64,000 bases of DNA, taken from assembly GCA_965228855.1 (NCBI GenBank), contig CBDDIJ010000002.1, positions 128,001-192,000 of the forward strand, in the 5' to 3' direction. This document shows positions 2,479-63,687 of this stretch, one piece after another. The stretch's first letter is position 1. Each line of letters opens with the position of its first letter. A program made the translations under genes and the position numbers. Source of the DNA: Candidatus Obscuribacterales bacterium (GTDB taxonomy: Bacteria; Cyanobacteriota; Vampirovibrionia; Obscuribacterales; Obscuribacteraceae). Below the pieces are notes generated by a model. That model was not told the DNA's origin, searched no databases, and was given only the letters and a program-made list of their open reading frames with translations.

Positions 2479-2785
2479 CTACTATATGCCAACGTATCCT
2501 CGGACTCCCAAAACCCTTCCCAGGCAGTCTTCTTCGAGGACTACTCCCGTCCCATAGCCTTGTTTTGCTCACTTTGGCTACGGTGGAATGACGGATTTTC
2601 GAAAATCCGGCAACGTACCGTAGACAAAACCCTGCTTACTATATGCCGACGTATCCTCCAATTCACGAAAACCTCTCTAGCCGGTCTTTTTCAAGGACAG
2701 CTCCTTGCTCGCCCTCTCGTTTTGCTCACTTTGGCTACGGTGGAATGACGGATTTTCGAAAATCCGGCAACGTACCGTAGACAAA
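2479..2785. repeat. Dispersed 56-bp twin-site element, two tandem half-elements (157-bp period)
   Basis: Identical cores TTTGGC-N11-GACGGA-N10-TCCGGC-N11-GACAAA at 2573-2628 and 2730-2785; outer boxes CTACTATA at 2479 and TTACTATA at 2636. Confidence 0.92.
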
Positions 2786-4032: not shown

Positions 4033-4055
4033 TCCAATTCCGCCTACAAACCCGC

Positions 4056-4303
4056 CTACTATACCCCGAAGTATCCGCATCATCCGGAGACCTCCCGCAG
4101 GGCTGGCATTCTCAGGATCAGTACTCAACGTTTCCTCACCAAAACCCTCGCTTTGGCTATCCTGCAATGACGGAATCGGCTAAATCCGTCATCGCAGGAT
4201 AGCCAAAGACTTCTTTTTCAGAAGGCGCCAAAGCGATTAAGAGCCTAAAAACCCCACCATGAGCTACTTGCCGGGATTTACGAGATACGCCCGCATATAG
4301 TAG
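4056..4303. repeat. Complete symmetric dispersed element (248 bp)
   Basis: CTACTATA at 4056, core 4152-4207, TATAGTAG at 4296-4303 (96 bp either side); an extra box lies at about 4375-4392. Confidence 0.92.
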
Positions 4304-4478
4304 TATATCGGGAGACGCCAGAGCAAAAAAAGCCCGAAAAGATGCCGTGGCGGGCGTTGCTCGATGCGCGTCTCCACGCCTGCATATAGTAACAAAACCG
4401 CACAAAAGCAATCAGAGCCGCATTACTGCGGATGATTGCCTTGAGTCCGACTGGACTCGTGCGACCTGCTAAGCATGC

Positions 4479-5138
4479 CTAAAAGCCGAGCTCTCCGCGC
4501 ACGCGGTCCAGGTTTTCCTGAACTGTCACGGCGATGTTCTTGCAGTAGTTCGGCCACTCTTCGCACACCTGCTCAGCCTGCCACCAGATCTCACGAGCCT
4601 CCACGAAGTTGCCGCGCTCGTACGTCAGGCACGCGAGTTGGTTCAGCACCTCAGCGCAGAACCAGTGATCGCGGCGAAGATGACTCTCAACCTCAGCCAT
4701 CGCGCGGTCGACGTGAGCCTGCGCCTCCTCCCAGCGATGTTGCCGGCGCGCAGCGTCGCAGGCACTGTTATGCCGCCGAGCGCGTTCCAGCGCCGCATTC
4801 ACCTCTCGGCGACTACAATGAACCGGTTCCGGCTCGACGGTGAAGTTCATGGTCGTCAACCACGAACCATTCACGCGGAGACCGTTTGCATCCGGGTGCA
4901 GGATCAACGCGGTTCCGGGCCCACTCTTACGCGGCGCCACCGCCGGCGGCACCACCACGTTAGCAGGCTTCTCAGCCTCACACCCGCCATCCTTGACGCC
5001 AGGCTTGACACCGAGCATCTGCCGCAGATGCCGGAAGTGCCGCTCTTGCTTCCGGTCTTCCCGCTTTCGCAGAAACTGCCGCACACCCACCGCCGCTAAA
5101 CCGAACAACGCTGCCGCTCCGATCAGATAGTTTCTCAT
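4479..5138 (-). CDS. Membrane-anchored TPR protein
   Basis: N-terminal hydrophobic helix; AEVLNQLACLTYERGNFVEAREIW TPR; AGGAG RBS. Confidence 0.75.
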   Translation of the reverse strand: MRNYLIGAAALFGLAAVGVRQFLRKREDRKQERHFRHLRQMLGVKPGVKDGGCEAEKPANVVVPPAVAPRKSGPGTALILHPDANGLRVNGSWLTTMNFTVEPEPVHCSRREVNAALERARRHNSACDAARRQHRWEEAQAHVDRAMAEVESHLRRDHWFCAEVLNQLACLTYERGNFVEAREIWWQAEQVCEEWPNYCKNIAVTVQENLDRVRGELGF

Positions 5139-5215
5139 CTGATGCTCCTTTTCGCCTGAAGTTTGTAAAAGTAACTGGTACTGAAATCTTGCCGCGAAAT
5201 GACCGCAGCACAAGC

Positions 5216-6166
5216 CTAGCCGTCGAAGGCTTCGGCTGTTCCGATAGCGAAGGTGAACGGTCCCGCCTCCATCGCGGCGTAAACCGCAGCGAGTTCATCA
5301 CCGTTCAGATCGACTTCGACACGCGTGCGCGTGTTGAGATCGTAGACTTCCGCGCCGCTGTCGCCGATCACGATCACCTTCATGTCTTTGAGAAACTGCA
5401 CCCGGCGGACATAGACCCGGTGCCCCGTTTCAATTCGCACACTGACACCCTTGTCCAGATCAGCAATCCAGAGATTGCATCGTCCGGTAGCCCTGTAGGT
5501 GGAGCCGGCGAAAACAGCAATTCTACCCACCGGGTGGATGGCATGGGCCCAGCACTCGAAGTCGAGATCCTCGTCCGCGCCGACAAAAGCACGCTCCAGT
5601 GAGTCTCCCGTTTCCACATCCACACAATAGACGGCACCACCCGCGGTGAGCGCCAGCACGGATTCACCTTGCCCGGTGAACATCACCCGCACGATCGCTG
5701 AGCTGCAGACTTTCCGGAGAAACCGCTCTTTGCGCACAGTCCCGTTGTTCAGATCAACCACGGCAACGCTGCCGGTCGAGGTTCCAACGGCGAGCTTGTC
5801 CCCCTGCTGGCTGTAGGCGACGGACTGGGCACGAGCGAGCGGCATCGGTTTCAGCCAGGCACCGAGAGCAACATCGTAGAACTCCACGGAGTTCACCTTG
5901 TCACCATATACGATGGCACACTCTTGGTTGCGAGCGCCGTTGATCTCGGTCTTGAGCACCGGTCGAAAAGCCATACCGAGACACGCCACAGCGTTCGGCA
6001 CTTCGACTGACACGCCGGTTTCCGTGTCAATCAACCATGGAGGCTCACCGCGCGCAACCACGCCGAGCACTCCCTTGTTAGAACCAGGCGCCGGCGAAAC
6101 CAGGTCACGAACCAGGCTCCCGCGCGCGTCGATGGCGAACTTCGTAATCGAAAAAGTTCGAGTCAT
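5216..6166 (-). CDS. WD40/beta-propeller-like protein
   Basis: Blades such as SVAYSQQGDKLAVGTSTGSVAVVDL; AAGGAG RBS before ATG 6166. Confidence 0.7.
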   Translation of the reverse strand: MTRTFSITKFAIDARGSLVRDLVSPAPGSNKGVLGVVARGEPPWLIDTETGVSVEVPNAVACLGMAFRPVLKTEINGARNQECAIVYGDKVNSVEFYDVALGAWLKPMPLARAQSVAYSQQGDKLAVGTSTGSVAVVDLNNGTVRKERFLRKVCSSAIVRVMFTGQGESVLALTAGGAVYCVDVETGDSLERAFVGADEDLDFECWAHAIHPVGRIAVFAGSTYRATGRCNLWIADLDKGVSVRIETGHRVYVRRVQFLKDMKVIVIGDSGAEVYDLNTRTRVEVDLNGDELAAVYAAMEAGPFTFAIGTAEAFDG

Positions 6167-6574
6167 GAGAAACTCCTTGTGTTGGCACCCGCACATTCGG
6201 CGAGTGTAATGCCTCTGAAAACATGAAAATCTCCTGCCCGCGCGAATCCCAACGACCATAGTCGGGCTCCTAATTAACTGCTGTAGTCTGCTTATCTGCT
6301 TGCGGCGTTTGTTGTTTCAAACAAAATTCCAGGGATTAAAACCAACCTAACAGTCCCCACCGAATTCACCAAGATCTTTTTAGGCTATAAACAGAATCAA
6401 GCATCAACGTGGAGAAGCTCACCAGAAGCAAGAATCAAGCATTCGAGAACATAAAAACTCTTAAGCGCTAGTTTGTGCCACTAAGAATTAAACTGGGAAC
6501 CAGGTAACAACTTAAGCCCGCGAGCACTACCGATATTGAAAATAAACGAAACTACTTCGCACAACACGACCTGC

Positions 6575-6821
6575 CTACTATATACCACAGCATAAGCCAA
6601 ACCGACAAAAGCCATTACCCGCATGGTTTTCAGCCAATCTTCAAGCTCACTCTTGATCGAAACCCGACAGTTTGGCTATCCCACTACGACGGAATTCGCA
6701 AAATCCGGCATTCCCTGATAGACACCGAGCCGAAAATCGACCCGCTTGAAGGTACAAAAACTTCGAAAACCACCACTGAGAAGCCATCGGGCAAAACCGT
6801 TTATACTGCCTTTTATAGTAG
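6575..6821. repeat. Complete symmetric dispersed element (247 bp)
   Basis: CTACTATA at 6575, core 6671-6726, TATAGTAG at 6814-6821. Confidence 0.9.
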
Positions 6822-6902: not shown

Positions 6903-8777
6903 TTAGGCGGCTTTGGAAAGCCGCTGGAAGCCGGTCGTGAAGTACTCCAGTTCACGCCGAGACTTGCTCGACAGGTACTTCGGAGTGAAGAAGCGGTCCT
7001 GCCACTTCGCCGTGGGCTCCAGGCTGGCCTCGAACGTGCCCCCGTCGTTGCGGACCATCGACCGGAACCGGTAGTGGTCGTAGACGTCGAGGATGTGCGC
7101 GAGGTACGCAGCAGCGAGGCGATGGTTGCCACGAACGATGAGGAGGTTCTCGTCGTTGGAGTAGCTCGCCTTGAAGCCCAGGTTGTGGCTGCCGAGGATG
7201 ACCACCGGGTCGTCGCCGAACGGGTCGACCACCACGATTTTGTCGTGAATGATCGAGTGGGCTTCCGGAAGCTTCAGAAGCTCCTTCTGCCACTTGCCGA
7301 CCGCCGTTTCCAGCGAATCGGCGGCGATGATCACCGGCCGCTTCTTGTCGTGGTGGAAGATCTGAACCGGGGCTGCCACTTGCGCGGCGGCGGTCAGATC
7401 CGCGAAGGTCCCGCTCACGTCCGGCGAGATGATGCCAGCCGCAGAGCCGTCAGCCGAACTCGCCGGGACCAGCAGACCCGATTCACCGCGAACGAAGCGG
7501 TTGGGCTGCTGAGGCGTGAACGGCTTGGGCAGAGCCTGCGGGCTGGACACCGCGCCGCGGTAGAACAGGTGCTTCTTCCCGAACTGCATCCCGTTGATCT
7601 TGCTGATGATCGAGGGGAAGCCCGGGTAGAACGCGAGGAAGTAGACGCCTTCCTTCGCGCCGTCGATCGCGTCGAAGACTTCGCCCATGTCCACGGGAAC
7701 GGGAGGCTTGGTCTTCGGCTTCACCTTCTCGACGGTGTTGGGCGAGAACCACGCCTGAATGCGCGTCCCGTCCTTGAGCACGACTTCCTTCGGCTTCTTG
7801 CGATTGAAATCGCGGAGCGCCGTGCCCTGCAGTTCGCCCTTGTCGGTGTCTTCCTTGAGGGCGTCCCAGGCCGCGCCGTAGATCTCGCCGAGTTCCTCGG
7901 AGATGACCGACAGCGCGTTGTTGGACTGGCAGCAGAGACCCGTGAACGTCGAGTTCGCACTCGCCGTCAGAACCTCCACCGGGCGACCAGCCTTGTTGTA
8001 CCGCACGTGGGACTTGTTGTGCGGCAGCGACGACTTGGGCAGGATGCGGTCGTGAACTTCCGCTTCCGCCTCATGCAGACGCTTGCGGGCATCCGCGTTG
8101 GTCTCGTCGTTCTCGCCGGCGTTGCCGAGGATGAGGCTGAACACGTCCGTGTTCGCCAGCAGGAAGTCGACGATCTCGGGGTCGGCAAGCTCATAGAGCG
8201 CCGAGTACACGTGACCGTCTTCCGCCTTGGCTCGCTCGAACACGCCCTTGATGAAGCCAGGCAGTTCGCCGGCGAGCATCGTGCGAATCGGGCTGTCCGG
8301 CTTCTTCAGCTCCTCGATGAGCTTCTCGGGGTCGGGACTGCCGTCCTCGAGCTTGGGCAGCATCGACGCCAGCTTCTGCGTGGACAGGATGCCGCGGTTG
8401 AAGCAGGCCTTCATCTGGTCGCTGATCTCGGTCGAGCGCGTCACTTCGTTGGTCGTGACCGCCATCTCGGCGAGAGGCTTGAGATTGTCGGGCTCGCCGA
8501 CCATCGGCACGATTTCGTACTTGTAGGTCTCGCCGGTCTTGCCGCCGAAATCCTTCCACTTGAAACCCTGAATGGGCCACTCGTCCGTGGTACGCGAAGT
8601 CCAGCCTTCGCCGTCCTTCTTCTGGCTGGGGAACGGCAAGTACGCCGGAAGCGTAAACTTCTCGCCGGTCGCGACGTTGATGCGGCGCACCGAGAAGCCG
8701 AGGCAGTTCTCGATGGCCTTGTCGGTCAACCAAACGATGACCGAGCAGGTGTTGTTTCCGAATGCTACAGCTTTCAT
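6903..8777 (-). CDS. Phospholipase D superfamily protein (two HxK motifs)
   Basis: HDKIVVVD...GSHN intact; HNKSHVRY...ASAN degenerate; AAGGAG RBS. Confidence 0.88.
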   Translation of the reverse strand: MKAVAFGNNTCSVIVWLTDKAIENCLGFSVRRINVATGEKFTLPAYLPFPSQKKDGEGWTSRTTDEWPIQGFKWKDFGGKTGETYKYEIVPMVGEPDNLKPLAEMAVTTNEVTRSTEISDQMKACFNRGILSTQKLASMLPKLEDGSPDPEKLIEELKKPDSPIRTMLAGELPGFIKGVFERAKAEDGHVYSALYELADPEIVDFLLANTDVFSLILGNAGENDETNADARKRLHEAEAEVHDRILPKSSLPHNKSHVRYNKAGRPVEVLTASANSTFTGLCCQSNNALSVISEELGEIYGAAWDALKEDTDKGELQGTALRDFNRKKPKEVVLKDGTRIQAWFSPNTVEKVKPKTKPPVPVDMGEVFDAIDGAKEGVYFLAFYPGFPSIISKINGMQFGKKHLFYRGAVSSPQALPKPFTPQQPNRFVRGESGLLVPASSADGSAAGIISPDVSGTFADLTAAAQVAAPVQIFHHDKKRPVIIAADSLETAVGKWQKELLKLPEAHSIIHDKIVVVDPFGDDPVVILGSHNLGFKASYSNDENLLIVRGNHRLAAAYLAHILDVYDHYRFRSMVRNDGGTFEASLEPTAKWQDRFFTPKYLSSKSRRELEYFTTGFQRLSKAA

Positions 8778-9254: not shown

Positions 9255-9465
9255 CCCGTCAACGAGCCAGCGACAAAATTCACCAGATCCGTCGCTCTCT
9301 GATTGACAGGGCTCCCGTCGGACAACTCTAAACTCGACCTGTCAACGAGCCAGCGACAAAATACACCAAATCCGTCGCTCTCTGATTGACAGCGCGCCTC
9401 AAAATCCATTTTGTCAACGAGCCGGCGACGAAATCCGCAAAATCCGTCGTGACGAGGAAGGTTCG
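9255..9465. repeat. Three tandem variant 56-bp cores without outer boxes
   Basis: CCYGTC-AACGAGCCAGC-GACAAA-N10-TCCGTC-GCTCTCTGATT-GACAG at 9255 and 9338, with a degenerate copy at 9410. Confidence 0.85.
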
Positions 9466-17292: not shown

Positions 17293-17504
17293 CTACTAGC
17301 TCATTCAGGGAAATGCCTACTAACTCATTCAGTATCACTTTTCTGCGCCAGTATGCGTTTTCAAGCTTCAAAATCCTACTAGCTCATTCAGTATCATTTT
17401 TCAGCGCCAGTAAGCATTTCGGGCTTTCGAGCCCCTACCAAGAGAGGGCTTGTCTACGACCGATAGACGGATTTCGGAAAAAGCGTCAATCAGTCGTAGA
17501 CAAC
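17293..17504. repeat. Dispersed element with triplicated outer box
   Basis: CTACTARCTCATTCAG at 17293, 17317 and 17376; core 17449-17504. Confidence 0.85.
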
Positions 17505-17597: not shown

Positions 17598-17865
17598 GCG
17601 CAGGTCGCTGCAATCTTGATTGCAGGTTTCCAAAGAAAAGCTGCAAACTAATTTGCAGCTCCCTGAATTTCGACTCGAACGTCAACGACTTGGTGCTTCG
17701 CGCAGGTCGCTGCAATCTTGATTGCAGGTTTCCAAAGAAAAGCTGCAAACTAATTTGCAACTGCCTGAATTTCGACTCGAACGTCAACGACTTGGTGCTT
17801 CGCGCAAGTCGCTGCAATCTTGATTGCAGGTTTCCAAAGAAAAGCTGCAAACTAATTTGCAGCTG
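17598..17865. repeat. 102-bp tandem repeat (about 2.6 copies) of twin CTGCAA-N6-TTGCAG palindromes
   Basis: Units begin at 17608, 17710 and 17812. Confidence 0.93.
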
Positions 17866-29330: not shown

Positions 29331-29614
29331 CTACTATATGCCGAAGTTTCTCCTTTCTCCCAAATCGCCTGCAAACAGGGCGTTTCGAGCAATGCCCTCC
29401 GCACCCGCCCCTTCTTTGTCTACGCCAGAGCGCCGGATTTCGCCAAATCCGTCTACGCCAGAGCGCCAAGACATTCTACTATATCCCCAAGTATCTACCT
29501 TCTCCAGGAGAGCCCGTGTCTAGAGCGTTTCGAGCAATGCCCTCCTCCGTTCCCCTCCTTTGTCTACGCCAGAGCGCCGGATTTCGCCAAATCCGTCTAC
29601 GCCAGACCGCCAAA
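29331..29614. repeat. Dispersed element, two tandem half-elements (about 144-bp period)
   Basis: Outer boxes at 29331 and 29476; cores 29415-29470 and 29559-29614. Confidence 0.92.
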
Positions 29615-31338: not shown

Positions 31339-31478
31339 TTTGTCTACGTTGCTATGACGCAATCGGCGAAATCCGGCATCGCCACGTAGCCAAACTTAAC
31401 CCACCCGAACGACCAAACCGACCAATCCCTCTCCCCCAGCCCGATTCCGGAACCCGTTTCTATGATTTTCTATAGTAG
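31339..31478. repeat. Dispersed element (core plus right box)
   Basis: Core 31339-31394; TATAGTAG at 31471-31478. Confidence 0.9.
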
Positions 31479-35788: not shown

Positions 35789-35872
35789 CCCAGCGAACGC
35801 CCATCGTCACCCTCGCCCTGCAAGCCTCGCCGCGACCGTCGTGCCGGTCGCTCGTCACTGACTGCTCGTCGC

Positions 35873-36277
35873 CCAGTGTGGAAAACAGGCCATCTTTGCA
35901 TCGATTTTGGATCGGTTTTTCACACACTGGTCCGCAGACAGTTGGTTCGCTAGTGGACTTCATCCCCGCCAACTAGCCAGAGGCGAACAGCCGACTGCGC
36001 TCAACCAATGTGTAGAAAACAGGCCATCTTTGCATCGATTTTGGATCGATTTTTCACACACTGGTCCGCAAACAGTTGGGTTCGCCAGTGGGGCCATAGT
36101 CAGCGCTCAACCAGTGTGTAGAAAACAGGCCATCTTTGCATCGATTTTGGATCGGTTTTTCACACACTGGTCCGCAAACAGCTGGTTCGCCAGTGGGGCC
36201 ATGGTCTGCTCGTCGCCCAGTGTGTAGAAAACAGGCCATCTTTGCATCGATTTTGGATCGGTTTTCTGCACACCTGG
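35873..36277. repeat. Four tandem copies of a roughly 60-bp imperfect palindrome
   Basis: CCAGTGTGTAGAAAACAGGCCATCTTTGCATCGATTTTGGATCGGTTTTTCACACACTGG at 35873, 36005, 36111 and 36217. Confidence 0.93.
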
Positions 36278-36498
36278 AAATTCACGGGTCAACATCGGTG
36301 CCCGAAACCCGAAAACACCGATCCACTATCTCTTTTAGTATACGCACCACCGGTAGTGACAATCAGAAGTGGCAAAGGTTAGACCGCCTGAACGTCTCTG
36401 ATTAGCAAACCCGACAAACCTGCGCGCACACTTCGAGACCCGGTCAGGGGACGGCAACACGCAGTCGCCGCCCCATGTTTCGCAATCGAGCGTTCTGC

Positions 36499-37823: not shown

Positions 37824-37963
37824 CTACTAGATCATACAGGACCTCGCCTCGACGGAGACACAGACCCGATAAGGGCTTTCGGCATCACCGTTTCAGCAGA
37901 CAGTTTCGTTGTCTACGGTGCGATGACGGAATTCGGAAATTCCGGCATCGCACGATAGACAGA
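37824..37963. repeat. Dispersed element (left box plus core)
   Basis: CTACTAG at 37824; core 37908-37963. Confidence 0.85.
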
Positions 37964-38025: not shown

Positions 38026-40923
38026 TTACACGCGGCAGCCGTGTGTGATCAGGTCGAGGCGGTCGGCAACCACTTCGGCGCTGATGTTGACGACGAGCTG
38101 CTGGTCGCGACGAATCGCCTCTTCCAGCGTGCTGATGCGGGTGCGGTCCTGGGCGACCTCGGTTTCGAGACTGGTGACGGTGGTCTCGTTGCTGGTGACG
38201 ACGGTGGTGAGCTGCTCGACGCGCTCACGGCTGACGCGGACCTTCTCGGTCAGACGAGCGATGGTGTCCTCGCCGGTCGCGACCTTCTGGGTGAGCTGCG
38301 TGACGGTGGTCTCGCCGGTCGCGATAGCGGTGTTCAGGTTCGCGATGCAGGTTTCGGTCTCGCGAATCTGAACGGAGACGCGCTCGATGTTGGTGCGGTC
38401 GGCGGCGACTTCGCCCTCGAGCCGGGTGACGGTGGTCTGGTCGCAGGCGACGACTTCAGTCAGGCGGGTCACTTCGGTGCGGTCACCGTTGACTTCGCAC
38501 TCGAGCTGGTTGACGACGGTGCGGTCCTGAGCGACCTCGCAGGTCAGCCGGGCGACAGTCGCTTCGTCGACGCAGATCTGCTGGCCGATGGTCACGATGC
38601 ACTCCTCACCTTCGCGGATCTCGGTCTCCAAACGGGTGATGTTGGTGCGATCGTTCGTGATCGCGGTGGTGGCGTTGGTGACGCGGGTCTGGTCGTTCGA
38701 AACGACCGTGGTCAGCCGGTCGACCTCGGTGCGATCGCAAGCGACGATGTCTTCGAGACGCGTCACTTCGCACTGGTCGACGCGAACGACCTCGGTGAGC
38801 TGGTCGACGACGCACTGGTCCTCACGGACCTCGCCCTGCCACTTCGTCACTTCCTCGCGGTCCGCGCAGACCTCCTGCTCGAGCCGGGTGATGTCCTCCT
38901 TGTCGGTCTGGATCTCATGCCGCAGCCGGTCGATGGTGCACTTGCCCTCCTCGATCTCGCGGCGGTCCTGCTCGATCTCGCAGTCGTCCTGCGCGATGTT
39001 AGCCAAACCGACGCAGATCTCGGTACGCAGCCGGGTGACCTCGCTCGGGTCCGCGCAGGGCTGCTTCAGCAGGTCTTCCAGCTCCTTCGTGTCCTTGAGG
39101 AGCTCGGTGCGATTCTCGTGGCGGCGCTGACGGTCGGTCTTGAGCTCCTCCTTGTCGCGCGCGAGTTCCTCGCGAGCGGCGGTGAGGTCGGTCTCGTCCT
39201 TGATCAGCTCTTGGCGGGCGCCGGCGAGATCGTGCTCGTCCTCGGTCAGCTCAGCCTGCGCGCCATTGAGCGCCGCCTGATCGCGACCGAGTTCGGCTTG
39301 CGCCTCGGTGAGCGCCGCCTGATCCGTGCTCAGGGTCTGGCGCGCCGTGGCGAGCAGCTGCTCATCGGAGGTGAGCTTGCCCTGCGCGGTGGCCAACAGA
39401 GCGGTATCGCGGGTGAGGTCACTCTGGGCGGTCACCAGCTCGCCTTGGTGACGCACCAGGTCGCTCTGCGTCTGAGCCAGCTCGGCGCGATCGGCGTTGA
39501 GCTCCGTCGTCTTGCGACCGAGCAGTTCGCGGTCCGCGACCAGCTGCCCTTGCGCGGCGGTCAAGTCGGTTTTGTCCTTGGTCAGCTCGAGCCGAGCAAG
39601 GCGCAGCGCCTCTTCGTCGCGAGCCAACTCGTCGTTGGCGCGGGTGAGCAGGAGCTGGTCGGCGGTGAGCTGGTCACGGGCCGTGCCGAGCGCCGCTTCG
39701 TCGGCGGACAGTTCGCCCTGGTAGGTGGCGAGCTGCCCCTGCTGGGTGAGGAGCAGGGTCTGCTTGACCGAGAGAGTCTGGCGATCGGTCGCCAGCTGCG
39801 ACTGCGCCGTAGTCAGGCTCTGGCGGTCCGTGGTGAGCTGCGTCTGCGCACCGGTCAGGGACGTCTGGTCGGTGGTCAGCTGCGACTGCGCGCCGGTGAG
39901 CTGAACGCGGTTGCCAGCGAGCACGGTGCGCCAGTGGTCGAGCGCCGTGACGTCGATGGTGAGTTCGCCCTGCGCGTCGGTCAGCGCGGTCTGGTTGCCG
40001 TAGAGGTCCTGGAAAACCTCGTCGAGGGCGTCGAGGTCACGCCCGAGTTCGGCGCGCAGGTCCGAGCATTCCCCGTCCGCACAGTTGCCGTTACCGGGCT
40101 GACCGTTCGGCGGGCAGTTCGCCGGCGGCTGTGGCTGCCCGGTCGGCGGGCAGTAAACGACCGGCGGCTGCGGCCGCGGACCACCGTTCGGTCCGCAGTC
40201 CACACGGATGGGGGTGTAGTCGCAGTCCCAGTTGCCGCGCGCCGGCGCGACACCGCACGCGGTACCAGCCGGCGAGCCGTCCTGGTTGACCTTGACGAGG
40301 TTCGGGCCGACGTCCCAGGTCGGAACGTTCTCCTGGCTCGTGATGGTAGTCGTGCGGTTGTCCACGGAGATGCGCTTGTTCGCGCCGTAGTCCGTGATCA
40401 CCGTCGTGATGATGTCGGAGTTCTTCGCGACCGCGTCCATCTTTATGAACGTCCCGTCGCCCAGCACGAGCGTCCGCTGCGTCGTTGTCCAGTCCGTCGT
40501 GACGCCGTTCGCGTCTTCGTGGGGGTCGCCCCACTCGCGAACTTCCTGCTCGCCGCACGGGTTCTTGATGGTCACCGTCGAGCCGGTGATGTTGATGTTG
40601 TAGCCACCGCTGGTGGTGTAGCTGATCGGCTGACCGGCCGCAGTCTGCGAAAACTGACCGTCGCACTGGGTCTGAGTCTGGATAGGCGCGGTGTTGCAGT
40701 TGGTCGGGCGGCAGATCTGCACCTGCTCGGCCTCGAGCCGGATGTCGCCGACGCGCCCCACGAGCCCGCCGAGCTGGCCGAACTCGTTGACGAACCCGAC
40801 GGTCGGCACTTCGCGCGACTCCAGGTTCTCCACGCGCAGCCCGCGCACCGCGCGGCTCTTGGCGGGGTTGTTGATAAGCGAGGTCTTCTTCTTGCTGCCG
40901 AACAATTTGTTGAACAGGTTCAT
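38026..40923 (-). CDS. LEPR-XLL/Planctomycete-type N-terminus, DUF1521-like WGDPH domain and a roughly 670-aa 14-residue-repeat coiled coil
   Basis: LRVENLESREVP; VREWGDPH; LTTDQTSLTGAQTQ and VACDQTTVTRLEGE repeats. Confidence 0.85.
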   Translation of the reverse strand: MNLFNKLFGSKKKTSLINNPAKSRAVRGLRVENLESREVPTVGFVNEFGQLGGLVGRVGDIRLEAEQVQICRPTNCNTAPIQTQTQCDGQFSQTAAGQPISYTTSGGYNINITGSTVTIKNPCGEQEVREWGDPHEDANGVTTDWTTTQRTLVLGDGTFIKMDAVAKNSDIITTVITDYGANKRISVDNRTTTITSQENVPTWDVGPNLVKVNQDGSPAGTACGVAPARGNWDCDYTPIRVDCGPNGGPRPQPPVVYCPPTGQPQPPANCPPNGQPGNGNCADGECSDLRAELGRDLDALDEVFQDLYGNQTALTDAQGELTIDVTALDHWRTVLAGNRVQLTGAQSQLTTDQTSLTGAQTQLTTDRQSLTTAQSQLATDRQTLSVKQTLLLTQQGQLATYQGELSADEAALGTARDQLTADQLLLTRANDELARDEEALRLARLELTKDKTDLTAAQGQLVADRELLGRKTTELNADRAELAQTQSDLVRHQGELVTAQSDLTRDTALLATAQGKLTSDEQLLATARQTLSTDQAALTEAQAELGRDQAALNGAQAELTEDEHDLAGARQELIKDETDLTAAREELARDKEELKTDRQRRHENRTELLKDTKELEDLLKQPCADPSEVTRLRTEICVGLANIAQDDCEIEQDRREIEEGKCTIDRLRHEIQTDKEDITRLEQEVCADREEVTKWQGEVREDQCVVDQLTEVVRVDQCEVTRLEDIVACDRTEVDRLTTVVSNDQTRVTNATTAITNDRTNITRLETEIREGEECIVTIGQQICVDEATVARLTCEVAQDRTVVNQLECEVNGDRTEVTRLTEVVACDQTTVTRLEGEVAADRTNIERVSVQIRETETCIANLNTAIATGETTVTQLTQKVATGEDTIARLTEKVRVSRERVEQLTTVVTSNETTVTSLETEVAQDRTRISTLEEAIRRDQQLVVNISAEVVADRLDLITHGCRV

Positions 40924-41903
40924 GTTGATCCCTGAGATGATCCTTCTCTGTCGAGGTGATAGCCACCATAGCTACCGACCTTTGGAACTGATGCGAGAGG
41001 CAGCACGGGCTCACACGCCGCCTTTGGACAGTTGGCTTGTCGAATGGGAAACACACGCGACTCCATGCATTGAACGCAGAAGCCCATGTCAACACCATCT
41101 CGACACGATCATCATCACGAGGCAACTCGGTCGAAAAGCCTGAACACGGTTTGTCCAACTCATTAGGTCGAACGGTTCAGTAGTGGCTCTTCGCTGGAGT
41201 TCTAGGGATCGAGTCAGGCGCCTACCTCCTTTGGATAGCGCCGGAATGATAGTACCCAATGCCGCCTGGCGAGCCGCTCTTCTCAGGAGCGCTCATAGCC
41301 TGATGAAATTCCGAACCGGGGTTTAGTGCCGCCGTGTTTTGCGCGCCTGACCTCAAAAGGCGCATAGCAAGCCGAACGGTGGAAACGGTTTGTCGACGCA
41401 TATTGAAGGTGATTGAACCACCTTCGCGTAAAACAACCTCTCCGCCAACGCAATTTGACGCTCCAGAGCAGGTTTGAAACCACTTGCAACGGATGTGCAT
41501 GTCCGCGCAATCAGTATCAATACCAGTGCACTCCCCGGAGCATCACGAACGCAATCGCCACACAAGAGAGGGAATGGCCAAATTCTCTCTCTGACAGTAG
41601 AATCGAAACCCGAGCAACACCGGCACCACTGACGGTGCGCTCGGAGTTATCGATTCAATCTGCCTGTGGTGCTGGTGGCGGCTTATGTCCTAAATTGCGT
41701 GGGCGGAAAAGTTGCATTCAAATTCGCAAAGAAGCGTAACGCGTTGCAAGCCCAGGGCGTTTCCACTGACATTTGTTTACCAACAATTGCTTCGCAACGC
41801 GTTACGTTCTCACATTTGATATTGACCGAATCCCGACACGATGACGGTTTTGAAAGACCGAAAGCAATATCCCTCGCGCAATCGATTCAACTGACTCTAG
41901 TAG

Positions 41904-42057
41904 TTGCAAATAAGTTTGCAGTTTTCTGACCAAATCCTGCAATCTAGTTTGCAGCATACCTCTCACAACCATCCGATCGCACTAAATACACTTCAATTTC
42001 AGGTCGCTGCAATTTTGATTGCAGTTTTAAGCACAAAAGCTGCAATCAAACTTGCAG
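41904..42057. repeat. Two divergent copies of the twin CTGCAA-N6-TTGCAG element
   Basis: 41904-41954 and 42007-42057 (18-15-18 layout), 103 bp apart. Confidence 0.85.
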
Positions 42058-42302
42058 GTCTCAGCTTTGATTTCTCTCGGTGATATGCACGCCTGACGCG
42101 ATGCGTGATGGGACAGTTTGCACAGAGTTGCGTGAGGGTCAGCTTGGACAGAGTCTGCGTGCTGCGGACGCCGCCCTCTATCTACATTCGATAGTAGCAG
42201 TTGGATAAAAAATTGCCGTGCGAGGATGCCACGGCGAACGGACGGATTCACTTGCGTGAATCGTACGGATGATTCATCTAATTATTCAGGCAGCAGCTGC
42301 TC

Positions 42303-48937: not shown

Positions 48938-49324
48938 CTACTATATGCCTTCATATCTCCGACAGTCCGCAAAACGAGCTCTACAACAGCCTTTCTAGAG
49001 ATCAGTAATGGGCGCAACGAGCTGCCAAGACCTCGTTTGGCAATGACCGATAGACAGTTTTCCGAAAATCCGGCAATCCCACGTAGCCAAACCCAATCGT
49101 TCGAAACAAAGGCTAGTGAAGCGATCGCCGGAAACATATGTGGACAAAACAGCTCCCGGCAAGAACGACTCACTACGGCTTTTAGTAATATTCAGAGACC
49201 AAAAATCTGGCAATCCCACGTAGCCAAACCCACTCGTTCGAAACAGAGGATAGGGACGCGATCGCCGGAAACATACGTGGACAGAGTCTCTCAGGCACCG
49301 ACAAGTCACTACGGTTTTTAGTAG
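48938..49324. repeat. Complete dispersed element with duplicated right half (about 137-bp period)
   Basis: Box at 48938, core 49036-49091, TTTAGTAA at 49181; second half-core 49206-49228 and TTTAGTAG at 49317-49324. Confidence 0.88.
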
Positions 49325-53556: not shown

Positions 53557-53723
53557 GCGCTCGGCAGGTCGTGATATAAACAGCCGCAGTCGCTGACGTT
53601 CCCCGGAGAGTCGCACACAAAGTGCGATTTCTCCGGGGTTTCGCCTGAAATTATTCCTACTATCCCATGTCGTGCCCCTCAGCCTTGTATAATCGGTGTT
53701 GTTGGCGCAGGACGGAAGACAAG

Positions 53724-63548: not shown

Positions 63549-63687
63549 CTACTATATAGCCTCGTATTCACTCAAGCCCGCATCCCGCTGGCGGCAAGCC
63601 TCTTGTGCCCTCATCCGGACGCCTCAAATTTTCTGTCTACGCCACATTGCCGGATTTCGTCAAATCCGTCATAGCCACGTAGCCAAA
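63549..63687. repeat. Dispersed element (left box plus core)
   Basis: CTACTATA at 63549; core 63632-63687. Confidence 0.9.

Follow-up and report, generated by a model that had tools for sequence, protein, structure and literature searches.

Twin-dyad repeats with a helically phased box and one-ended duplications accompany a PLD-HTH protein family in an Obscuribacterales genome

The 64,000-nucleotide stretch of a Candidatus Obscuribacterales bacterium genome described here (hereafter the window; contig CBDDIJ010000002.1, positions 128,001 to 192,000) carries members of a repeat family in which a twin-dyad core of 56 base pairs (bp) stands at helically phased distances from a short box directed toward it. 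The box marks the fixed end of local duplications whose other end varies, and orthologous sites show a step in divergence near position -10 outside it. The repeats are paired with genes of a protein family that joins a phospholipase D (PLD) domain to a helix-turn-helix (HTH). We propose that these proteins may nick the DNA beyond the box and so prime inward copying of the element, a reading that we weigh below against its rivals.

The source genome (G000; 8.2 Mb in 6 contigs, 95% complete), in which the window is C2:128001-192000, was compared with a close relative (G007; 93% identity over 587 kb) and with a member of another genus (G026), and the window was also compared with contigs from sequencing runs of two studies (X5 and X10). 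Coordinates relative to a box are negative outside it and positive inward toward the core.

Boxes stand at a ladder of distances from the core

An iterated profile detects 213 cores in G000, exactly 56 bp long in 210 instances, and 0 cores in a reversed-contig control. Each core comprises two 17-bp dyads, G[GT]C-N11-G[AC]C, spaced 33 bp from centre to centre. Genome-wide, a box directed inward is present on 197 of 420 core sides, and 193 of these 197 boxes fall into four distance classes: 72-74 bp (8), 82-86 bp (76), 92-98 bp (96) and 104-109 bp (13). Once similar arms (the sequences linking box and core) were removed, the 165 non-redundant arms have class means of 72.9, 84.4, 95.6 and 106.5 bp, and the slope across them yields a ladder step of 11.14 ± 0.13 bp. 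None of the 165 arms ends at any of the 17 trough positions, where a smooth normal curve expects 46% of them. The first-pass annotation, made from the letters of the window, had proposed three classes one helical turn apart and had asked for a genome-wide histogram of the distances; the histogram is a discrete ladder and not a continuum, so that the phasing holds, but a fourth class exists and the step is about 11.1 rather than 10.5 bp (a period of 11.0-11.2 bp fits better than 10.5 bp, with a root mean square of 1.13 vs 1.22). Such a step fits tightly bent DNA, for which passages of PMC10888926 report a helical repeat above 11 bp, compared with 10.45 for relaxed DNA.

The same distance classes are found in G007 and in metagenome loci, both close kin of G000. 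The box motif is also enriched in G026 (15 vs 2 in the control), where it adjoins a twin-dyad core unrelated to that of G000. Of the G026 box-to-centre distances below 130 bp, 14 of 15 group into three classes 11 bp apart (13 of 20 matched cores), at 94.5-96.5 (5), 105.5-107.5 (7) and 118.5-119.5 bp (2), with one outlier at 67.5 bp.

Two-sided cores account for 42 of 210, whereas 119 are one-sided and 49 lack a box; the mirror-symmetric elements of about 250 bp that had been described do exist, as a minority form. Boxes and cores were located at 4056-4303 and 6575-6821, as annotated, and the element at 48938-49188, also listed as complete, has a right box with two mismatches. Out of the 15 box-to-core distances given for the window, 14 were reproduced (12 with at most one box mismatch, plus two that involve degenerate boxes, 73 bp for the box at 17376 and 97 bp for that at 49188), and one of 96 bp was not located. 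The statement that the box is usually TAC-N11-GTA is too strong, with exact matches in 69 of 191 boxes; the 3-11-3 geometry said to unite box and core is fixed in the core triplets and exact in that same fraction of boxes. Near 4375, a supposedly lone box proved to be the outer truncated duplicate with its box at 4385-4392, while the one at 53658 indeed has no nearby core and the one at 36324 is degenerate.

The arms are unrelated in sequence. Counted from the box, A/T tracts lie at about +33 and +53, and arms of the 96-bp class have a further tract about 10 bp from the core. Base pairing within the arm does not exceed what column frequencies predict, and we therefore describe it as holding two phased A/T tracts and not the AAA..CC..GG..TTT palindrome read there earlier.

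The core probably acts as a duplex site

Cores fold stably as hairpins, with a median z of -3.6 and 57 of 80 cores below -2, and complementary pairs are slightly more frequent than expected (e.g. 0.52 vs 0.36 at columns 16/41). Both results count against a duplex site, although any palindrome will fold well. The strongest coupling between core columns links neighbours (0.3-0.86 bits of mutual information), whereas variable hairpin-partner columns reach at most 0.11 bits, apart from 7/50 and the central pair. No Rfam family or tRNA was matched in the window. The fixed core length, the neighbour coupling, the lack of an Rfam match and the 11-bp ladder together favour a duplex site for a protein, and we consider it very likely that the elements form a helically phased duplex protein–DNA complex, in which the cores may occasionally extrude as cruciforms. 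This agrees with the looped or bent double-stranded complex proposed from the window, since the ladder is discrete and recurs in G026 with an unrelated core and since the arms are unrelated; the accompanying claim that the element is not an RNA hairpin is likewise favoured by the covariation and the Rfam search.

Duplications and divergence begin just outside the box

G000 contains 292 exact boxes, for 96 of which no core stands at a phased distance; many of the non-phased C2 boxes among those listed are outer copies of an adjacent box and arm. Tandem duplications that start at the box end were counted in G000 (76) and across 1.2 Mb of G007 (54). Their length ranges from 22 to 239 bp, and the inner stop is variable, lying in the arm, in the core or beyond, whereas the duplicated copy starts about 8-10 bp outside the box. 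The exact upstream match extends for at most 2 bp in 61 of the 76 G000 duplications, and a stretch of 7-10 bp that matches neither copy well precedes the inner box in 32 of the 76. Among the cases listed, orthologues without the duplication have the outer flank joined directly to a single box, which disagrees with insertion of a copy at -9 together with an ancestral spacer, a scenario that we rejected. Three duplications lie in the window (4305-4393, 17317-17375 and 49199-49324). Duplication lengths are only weakly phased (vector length 0.36 and 0.51 near 10.2 bp).

The same boundary appears in orthologue comparisons, which covered loci free of tandem cores, outer duplicates and gaps of more than 12 bp. 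Relative to G007, divergence rises from 0.03-0.06 beyond -11 to 0.21 at -10..-1 (33 sides), the latter stretch reaching 0.30 in metagenome orthologues (20 sides). It is 0-0.03 in the box and 0.12-0.18 in the arm against G007, and 12-27% in the arm over both comparisons. Changes of C/T and A/G are about equally frequent, all six classes are present and adenine-specific change was not seen, on which ground a diversity-generating retroelement was rejected. Insertions and deletions (indels) peak at -20..-1, with 30 in 53 orthologue pairs, and foreign DNA stands beside boxes in single clean cases: 960 bp at -8 (X5), a gene of about 830 bp near -15 (G007) and 385 bp near -15 (G000). Gene-size indels break at -30..+2 of boxes in 9 of 35 cases vs about 9% expected, an excess on which we do not rely because variable arms break alignments near boxes.

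Intrinsic terminators outside boxes (e.g. those at window 2479 and 4385) mostly end close by, 17 of 21 at a distance of 8-17 bp; either the elements creep up to terminators or they are placed where RNA polymerase stops. The unmatched stretch is equally long where the box faces a gene start without an upstream terminator, which favours a position fixed by the box. In dispersed arm pairs, likeness starts at the box in 10 of 10 and ends at the far edge of the core in 8 of 10, and no target duplication was seen at these copies. The unit that reached new sites is thus box, arm and core.

A PLD-HTH protein family is paired with the repeats

The PLD-HTH proteins (257-290 residues) combine a PLD domain (PLDc_2), a CxxC motif and an XRE-type HTH. 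All five paralogues of G000 map to C2, from 67 to 1043 kb. One of them (C2:103074-103847) lies 25 kb left of the window and is flanked by boxed cores to the left and right, likewise in G007. A G007 paralogue (53% identity) stands between box-poor arrays of subtype-B cores. Upstream of the paralogues at 67k and 1043k lie two sister repeat families, D2 and D3, dispersed in 19 and 46 copies, respectively. At C2:1002k, a paralogue with its own repeats takes the place of the core between two retained boxes, and the G026 core lies about 100 bp upstream of that genome's own PLD-HTH gene.

The family is present in 56 of 107 genomes of the order (E 1e-15), some matches covering the PLD part only. When a sequence-free detector was applied to the 1 kb around 67 family genes, 20 had a twin dyad at an offset of 31-35, compared with 2-4 for four other offset bands, and each positive locus has its own dyad sequence. 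A score of 50 was reached by none of 11 loci of another PLD gene and by 1 of 200 random windows. Near some PLD-HTH genes (L286, L292, L302, L314 and L222) the dyads stand not in pairs but in series of three or more, with 31-34 bp (and 33/38 bp) spacing.

Residues H107, K109, D114, S122 and N124 (HxKxxxxD-GSxN motif) are invariant in 34 of 34 aligned rows. The structure model (pLDDT 82) matches the fold of Nuc, NucT, Zucchini, PLD3 and TrmBL2, and the HTH resembles HipB and restriction–modification control proteins. No NCBIfam family reached its cut-off, PADLOC gave partial domain matches only, a single-protein search returned 7 PLD-HTH-like relatives among 21 matches, and an atlas search retrieved HTH proteins only, with scores under 0.9; the family is undescribed. 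The predicted homodimer scores 0.47, with a best control of 0.00, a mark reached by 20 of 30 solved pairs and by 1 of 23 single chains. Its runs have at least 63% of contacts in common and a pLDDT of at least 77, and the interface involves the HTH part only; this prediction may echo memorised HipB-like dimers. We conclude that a PLD-HTH protein probably binds the core, and we consider it likely that it also nicks just beyond the box.

The D3 family comprises 46 copies, always in tandem with a period of 101-103 bp and up to 13 consecutive at C2:1488.8k, and subtype-B cores repeat mostly at 73 bp; units of such constant length suggest that cutting takes place on both sides at set distances. A box-like motif at window 36325-36341 (minus strand) lies, by eye, about 95 bp from a D2 core centre, and another at C5:1605466 lies 93 bp from a D3 core edge; both are single cases and may be due to chance. 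The paralogue at C2:917966-918772 has no HxK motif and is possibly inactive, and the corresponding G007 site holds two cores, two boxes and another gene.

Two further PLD genes were considered. The gene at window 6903-8777 (minus strand), rejected as the partner, encodes a 624-residue PLD-like protein with relatives in 21 of 61 genomes, a patchy distribution not tied to the repeats: they occur in G001, G004 and G005 (72-78% identity), which have no core-pattern match, and this query finds none in the repeat-bearing G007. The 228-residue PLD gene at C2:305.9k stands beside three cores and encodes a signal-peptide-like Nuc protein outside the PLD-HTH family.

Cores crowd the origin region

Between 77 and 1121 kb of C2 lie 175 cores, in a high-G+C stretch surrounding dnaA (793 kb). 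The exact core pattern is present in 2 of 61 genomes, G000 and G007. Two metagenome assemblies contain 76 stretches with it, whose longest G000 matches are 77-97% identical, and a species-level genome collection gave 46 stretches in one Obscuribacterales metagenome-assembled genome (MAG) and 1 in an Acidobacteria MAG contig. The latter (L019, 88 kb) holds three cores and reflects either mis-binning or transfer. The core pattern had no match among viral contigs, and an origin as giant plasmid, phage or island was rejected, given that dnaA lies inside the region and that viral contigs match neither core nor gene.

Gaps that hold core clusters are convergent in 70 of 161 cases and divergent in 13, compared with 77 convergent and 112 divergent gaps in a background of 397. 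Boxes point toward gene 3′ ends in 125 of 170 cases; all these counts rest on genes called by a purpose-written script. Neither box nor duplication direction shows a clear replichore bias.

The origin-centred region C2:1-1150000 has a G+C content of 53-63% vs about 50% elsewhere, with genes of mixed G+C. Compared with G007, it has 42 indels in 587 kb, vs 24 in a 570-kb C5 control (mostly near the C5 end), and its indel density is about 2-3 times that of the control stretch. Repetitive extragenic palindromes (REPs) are targets of insertion sequence (IS) elements, and here the cores are targeted by IS110. Two IS110-family elements, in 3 and 4 near-identical copies (C2:774696, 858557 and 1120766; C2:197206, 987644, C5:860952 and 1461411), lie inside cores in 7 of 7 full-length matches, each element keeping to one insertion position within the core (about 51 for one, about 38 for the other), so that the cores serve as IS110 landing sites. 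The 182-kb contig C4, with halves of 45% and 64% G+C, is possibly chimeric or contaminating.

A proposed nick-and-copy mechanism and its alternatives

In the mechanism that we propose, one PLD-HTH dimer, formed through the HTH as the model predicts, would sit on each dyad, and two dimers 33 bp (three turns) apart would let the PLD domains pair into a two-histidine active site, which enzymes of the Nuc/BfiI type require. The A/T tracts would curve the arm and so bring the box up to the complex on one helical face, where it could be read by the PLD domain or by a host factor. The PLD domain would then nick 8-10 bp beyond the box, leaving a free 3′-OH and a 5′-phosphohistidine link as in BfiI, and a host polymerase would extend through box and arm to a variable stopping point. 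After rejoining, the original could be replaced by a mutated version or gain a nested tandem copy, and in rare cases a copy could arise elsewhere; foreign DNA could also enter at the open end, and end joining by Ku, for which G000 has two genes, would be an alternative way to close the break. A nick just beyond the box would explain the one-ended duplications found there. We put the chance that this whole chain holds at about even. More tentatively, the elements may represent a class of self-copying DNA in which a PLD-fold nuclease takes the role of an HUH relaxase: the HTH would pick a family-specific twin dyad and the common phased box would set the nick, so that core (specificity) and box (cut position) would be separate, swappable modules. 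Nick-primed one-ended synthesis would mutate, amplify and spread the sites and open them to incoming genes, and earlier versions of a site would be preserved in its outer truncated copies.

Several observations weigh against this mechanism. Even where a duplication is recent, its copies agree at only about 40-65% over -10..-1, which blurs the start point. Box-less flanks near cores diverge by 0.08-0.12 (G007) and 0.12-0.19 (metagenome), and the flank beyond -10 often carries terminators or stop codons under selection, so that the divergence step at -10 is partly confounded. The sites are nearly all common to G000 and G007: core-like sequence stands at the same G007 position for 56 of 57 clusters and the remaining one can be seen there with a single extra base, which implies that spread to new sites is slow or past. 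No phased boxes were found beside the D2 and D3 families, and only G000, G007 and G026 show a clear enrichment of the box, though the protein family occurs in 56 of the 107 genomes; the box is therefore not an obligatory partner of every paralogue. Moreover, 47 of the 67 PLD-HTH loci lack a twin dyad detectable by our method, which misses asymmetric dyads like those of G026, and the PLD domains do not pair in the homodimer model.

Other readings account for parts of these data. The box could be an activator-dependent promoter, with a -10 hexamer on either strand and the PLD-HTH protein acting as a TrmB-like regulator on the core; the ladder would then reflect the face-of-helix rule for activators, and duplications and mutations would be side effects of the open complex. 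Box hexamers are mildly enriched upstream of gene starts (73 vs 48 and 68 vs 41 in 2361 regions), the similarities to TrmBL2, HipB and restriction–modification control proteins fit a regulator, cores lie upstream of the PLD-HTH protein's own gene and an outward start site would fall near -5, within the variable stretch. We nevertheless regard a promoter as unlikely since (i) 125 of 170 boxes face gene 3′ ends and core clusters favour convergent over divergent gaps (70 and 13 of 161), (ii) the box profile has neither a -35 element nor a TG extension, (iii) the catalytic residues are invariant and (iv) box-to-core copies at new sites would be left unexplained. Alternatively, the elements could be host sites for chromosome organization or transcription roadblocks near oriC, at which the PLD-HTH protein only binds the core, and reading of the box and the lesions are due to a host factor such as a topoisomerase or nucleoid protein. 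The crowding of cores in 1.05 Mb around dnaA, their preference for convergent gaps and their retention at orthologous sites are in line with this proposal, as are the terminators ending 8-17 bp from the box (17 of 21) and the use of one box with unrelated cores in other genera. That the core family is found only in G000 and close relatives, that the unmatched stretch has the same length without an upstream terminator and that box and duplication directions have no clear replichore bias make us doubt it.

The box and core could also be the arm-type and crossover sites of a tyrosine or serine recombinase, with the two-sided, one-sided and box-less forms, all of which exist, corresponding to attP, attL/R and attB. 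Intasomes likewise combine phased arm sites with bending tracts, PF00589 is matched 17 times in the genome and 18 of 42 indels vs G007 have a breakpoint within 130 bp of a core. The G000–G007 alignment chain, however, is collinear across about 587 kb with the 57 core clusters (one genome pair), and no flank exchange or inversion was seen at any of them. What differs is core copy number within a cluster (up to 1 vs 10) and, at three G007 clusters, the presence of a core, two of these sites holding a PLD-HTH module in G000 instead. Only 6 of the 42 breakpoints are inside a core, several of them IS110 insertions. The region's two integrase-family genes are 1.4 and 2.5 kb from the nearest core, so that neither is within 1.4 kb of one (the serine type was not searched), and the duplications start outside the box. 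A recombinase site is thus improbable, and the earlier analogy to an attP intasome or res synaptosome gives way to the nick-and-copy reading, the region being collinear, without core flank swaps and with the fixed end of its rearrangements outside the box. Finally, the core could act as a single-stranded hairpin, either a REPIN-like HUH substrate or a small RNA, with CTAC/GTAG of the box as a REP-type tetranucleotide. Besides their stable folding, the cores are extragenic, stand in tandem with a short unrepeated spacer and have one enzyme gene per family, as parts of PMC3116915 describe for REPINs. We hold this to be very improbable, as no Y1 transposase was found in G000, loop length is fixed (56 bp in 210 of 213 cores), covariation at hairpin pairs is weak without an Rfam match and a hairpin has no need of an 11-bp ladder.

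Relation to known systems

By analogy, the layout is closest to REPIN-RAYT and the single fixed end to IS91. As sections of PMC3116915 describe for REPIN-RAYT, the palindromic repeats are extragenic and number in the hundreds, every flavour adjoins a single-copy enzyme gene of its own, and tandem clusters have a short unrepeated spacer. Unlike REPIN-RAYT, the linked enzyme is a PLD-CxxC-HTH protein and not an HUH tyrosine transposase, and the core behaves as a fixed-length duplex site with a distant box at whole helical turns. A search for Y1 HUH transposases (RAYT) gave 0 matches in G000, its control being positive in 6 of 14 genomes.

One-ended transposition of IS91, as outlined in portions of PMC13181058, similarly has one fixed and one variable end, with no target duplication seen, and a covalent 5′ link with a free 3′-OH is plausible here too. 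The present products differ in being mostly local tandem copies of 22-239 bp, with a fixed end set at a distance from the specificity site. Y2 HUH transposases gave 0 matches in G000 in a weak search whose controls gave none either.

The putative chemistry resembles that of BfiI and Nuc, in which, according to excerpts of PMC2853115 and PMC2475615, each chain has one HxK motif and two chains form the active site. BfiI forms a 5′-phosphohistidine link, frees a 3′-OH and cuts outside its recognition site (PMC2853115, in part), and the link can be transferred to a 3′-OH (PMC2475615, in part); this is what nick-primed synthesis with one fixed end needs. Unlike BfiI and Nuc, the present proteins have an XRE-type HTH for DNA binding, their sites are repeats that multiply in the host's own genome and cutting is a prediction.

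With the lambda attP intasome and the Tn3 res synaptosome, the elements have in common a phased accessory site with bending tracts in between; they differ in that strand exchange at cores is not seen, neither tyrosine recombinase gene of the region is closely linked and the sites are hundreds and fast-mutating. A miniature inverted-repeat transposable element was rejected, since boxes stand on both sides of the core in 42 of 210 instances and the dispersed copies run from one box to the core, with no duplication of their flanks. The system was not found in literature, covering few subscription papers and no supplements, on repeats of Obscuribacterales or Melainabacteria, on PLD nucleases with mobile elements, HTH domains or palindromic repeats, or on PLD transesterification.

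Features of the window

Coordinates of the repeat features are collected in Table 1. The window also encodes, at 38026-40923 (minus strand), a 965-residue open reading frame of 42-bp (14-residue) repeats with a G+C content of 65-69% and no Pfam match.

Table 1. Repeat elements and related features of the window
Feature	Position	Strand	Remarks
Element 1, left box	4056..4063	+	96 bp from core; GTA at 4071-4073
Putative nick zone, -10..-1 outside box	4046..4055	+	hypervariable between orthologues family-wide
Element 1, left arm	4064..4151	+	divergent sequence, phased A/T tracts
Element 1, core, subtype A	4152..4207	.	56 bp, two 17-bp dyads 33 bp apart
Element 1, right box	4296..4303	-	96 bp from core
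Outer truncated duplicate of element 1 right arm, box 4385-4392	4305..4393	-	absent in X5 and X10 contigs
Element 2, left box	6575..6582	+	96 bp; X5 960-bp insert at 6567, 8 bp outside
Element 2, core	6671..6726	.	56-bp core profile
Element 2, right box	6814..6821	-	95 bp from core
Two tandem box-arm-core units	2479..2785	+	period 157 bp, both 94 bp
Two box-less subtype-B cores	9255..9393	.	83 bp apart; degenerate third near 9412
Outer truncated duplicate, degenerate box 17376 (73 bp), core 17449-17504	17317..17504	+	59-bp period
Two tandem box-arm-core units	29331..29614	+	period 145 bp; 84 and 83 bp
One-sided element, core and box	31339..31478	-	84 bp
One-sided element, box and core	37824..37963	+	84 bp
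Element 3: box (98 bp), core 49036-49091, degenerate right box (97 bp)	48938..49188	.	
Outer truncated duplicate: half core, arm, box	49199..49324	-	
One-sided element, box and core	63549..63687	+	83 bp
Sister family D3, three copies, no phased box	17604..17865	.	102-bp period; matches array upstream of C2:1043k
Sister family D3, two further copies	41900..42060	.	
Sister family D2, four copies	35863..36291	.	matches repeats upstream of PLD-HTH paralogue C2:67k

Implications

To our knowledge, the enzymes that make copies of bacterial repeats are DDE and HUH enzymes, tyrosine and serine recombinases and reverse transcriptases. A PLD-fold mobiliser, if true, would add a new chemistry and a new way for DNA to copy itself. 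The parts are small (a 257-residue protein, a 56-bp site and an 8-bp box, with 165 natural spacing variants) and predict that an insertion of +5 bp kills activity whereas +11 bp keeps it. Such an enzyme would be a nickase whose recognition and cut sites are 100 bp apart and separately swappable, and it could be turned into a tool. In this uncultured lineage, the system may explain the fast gene turnover of the 1-Mb origin region.

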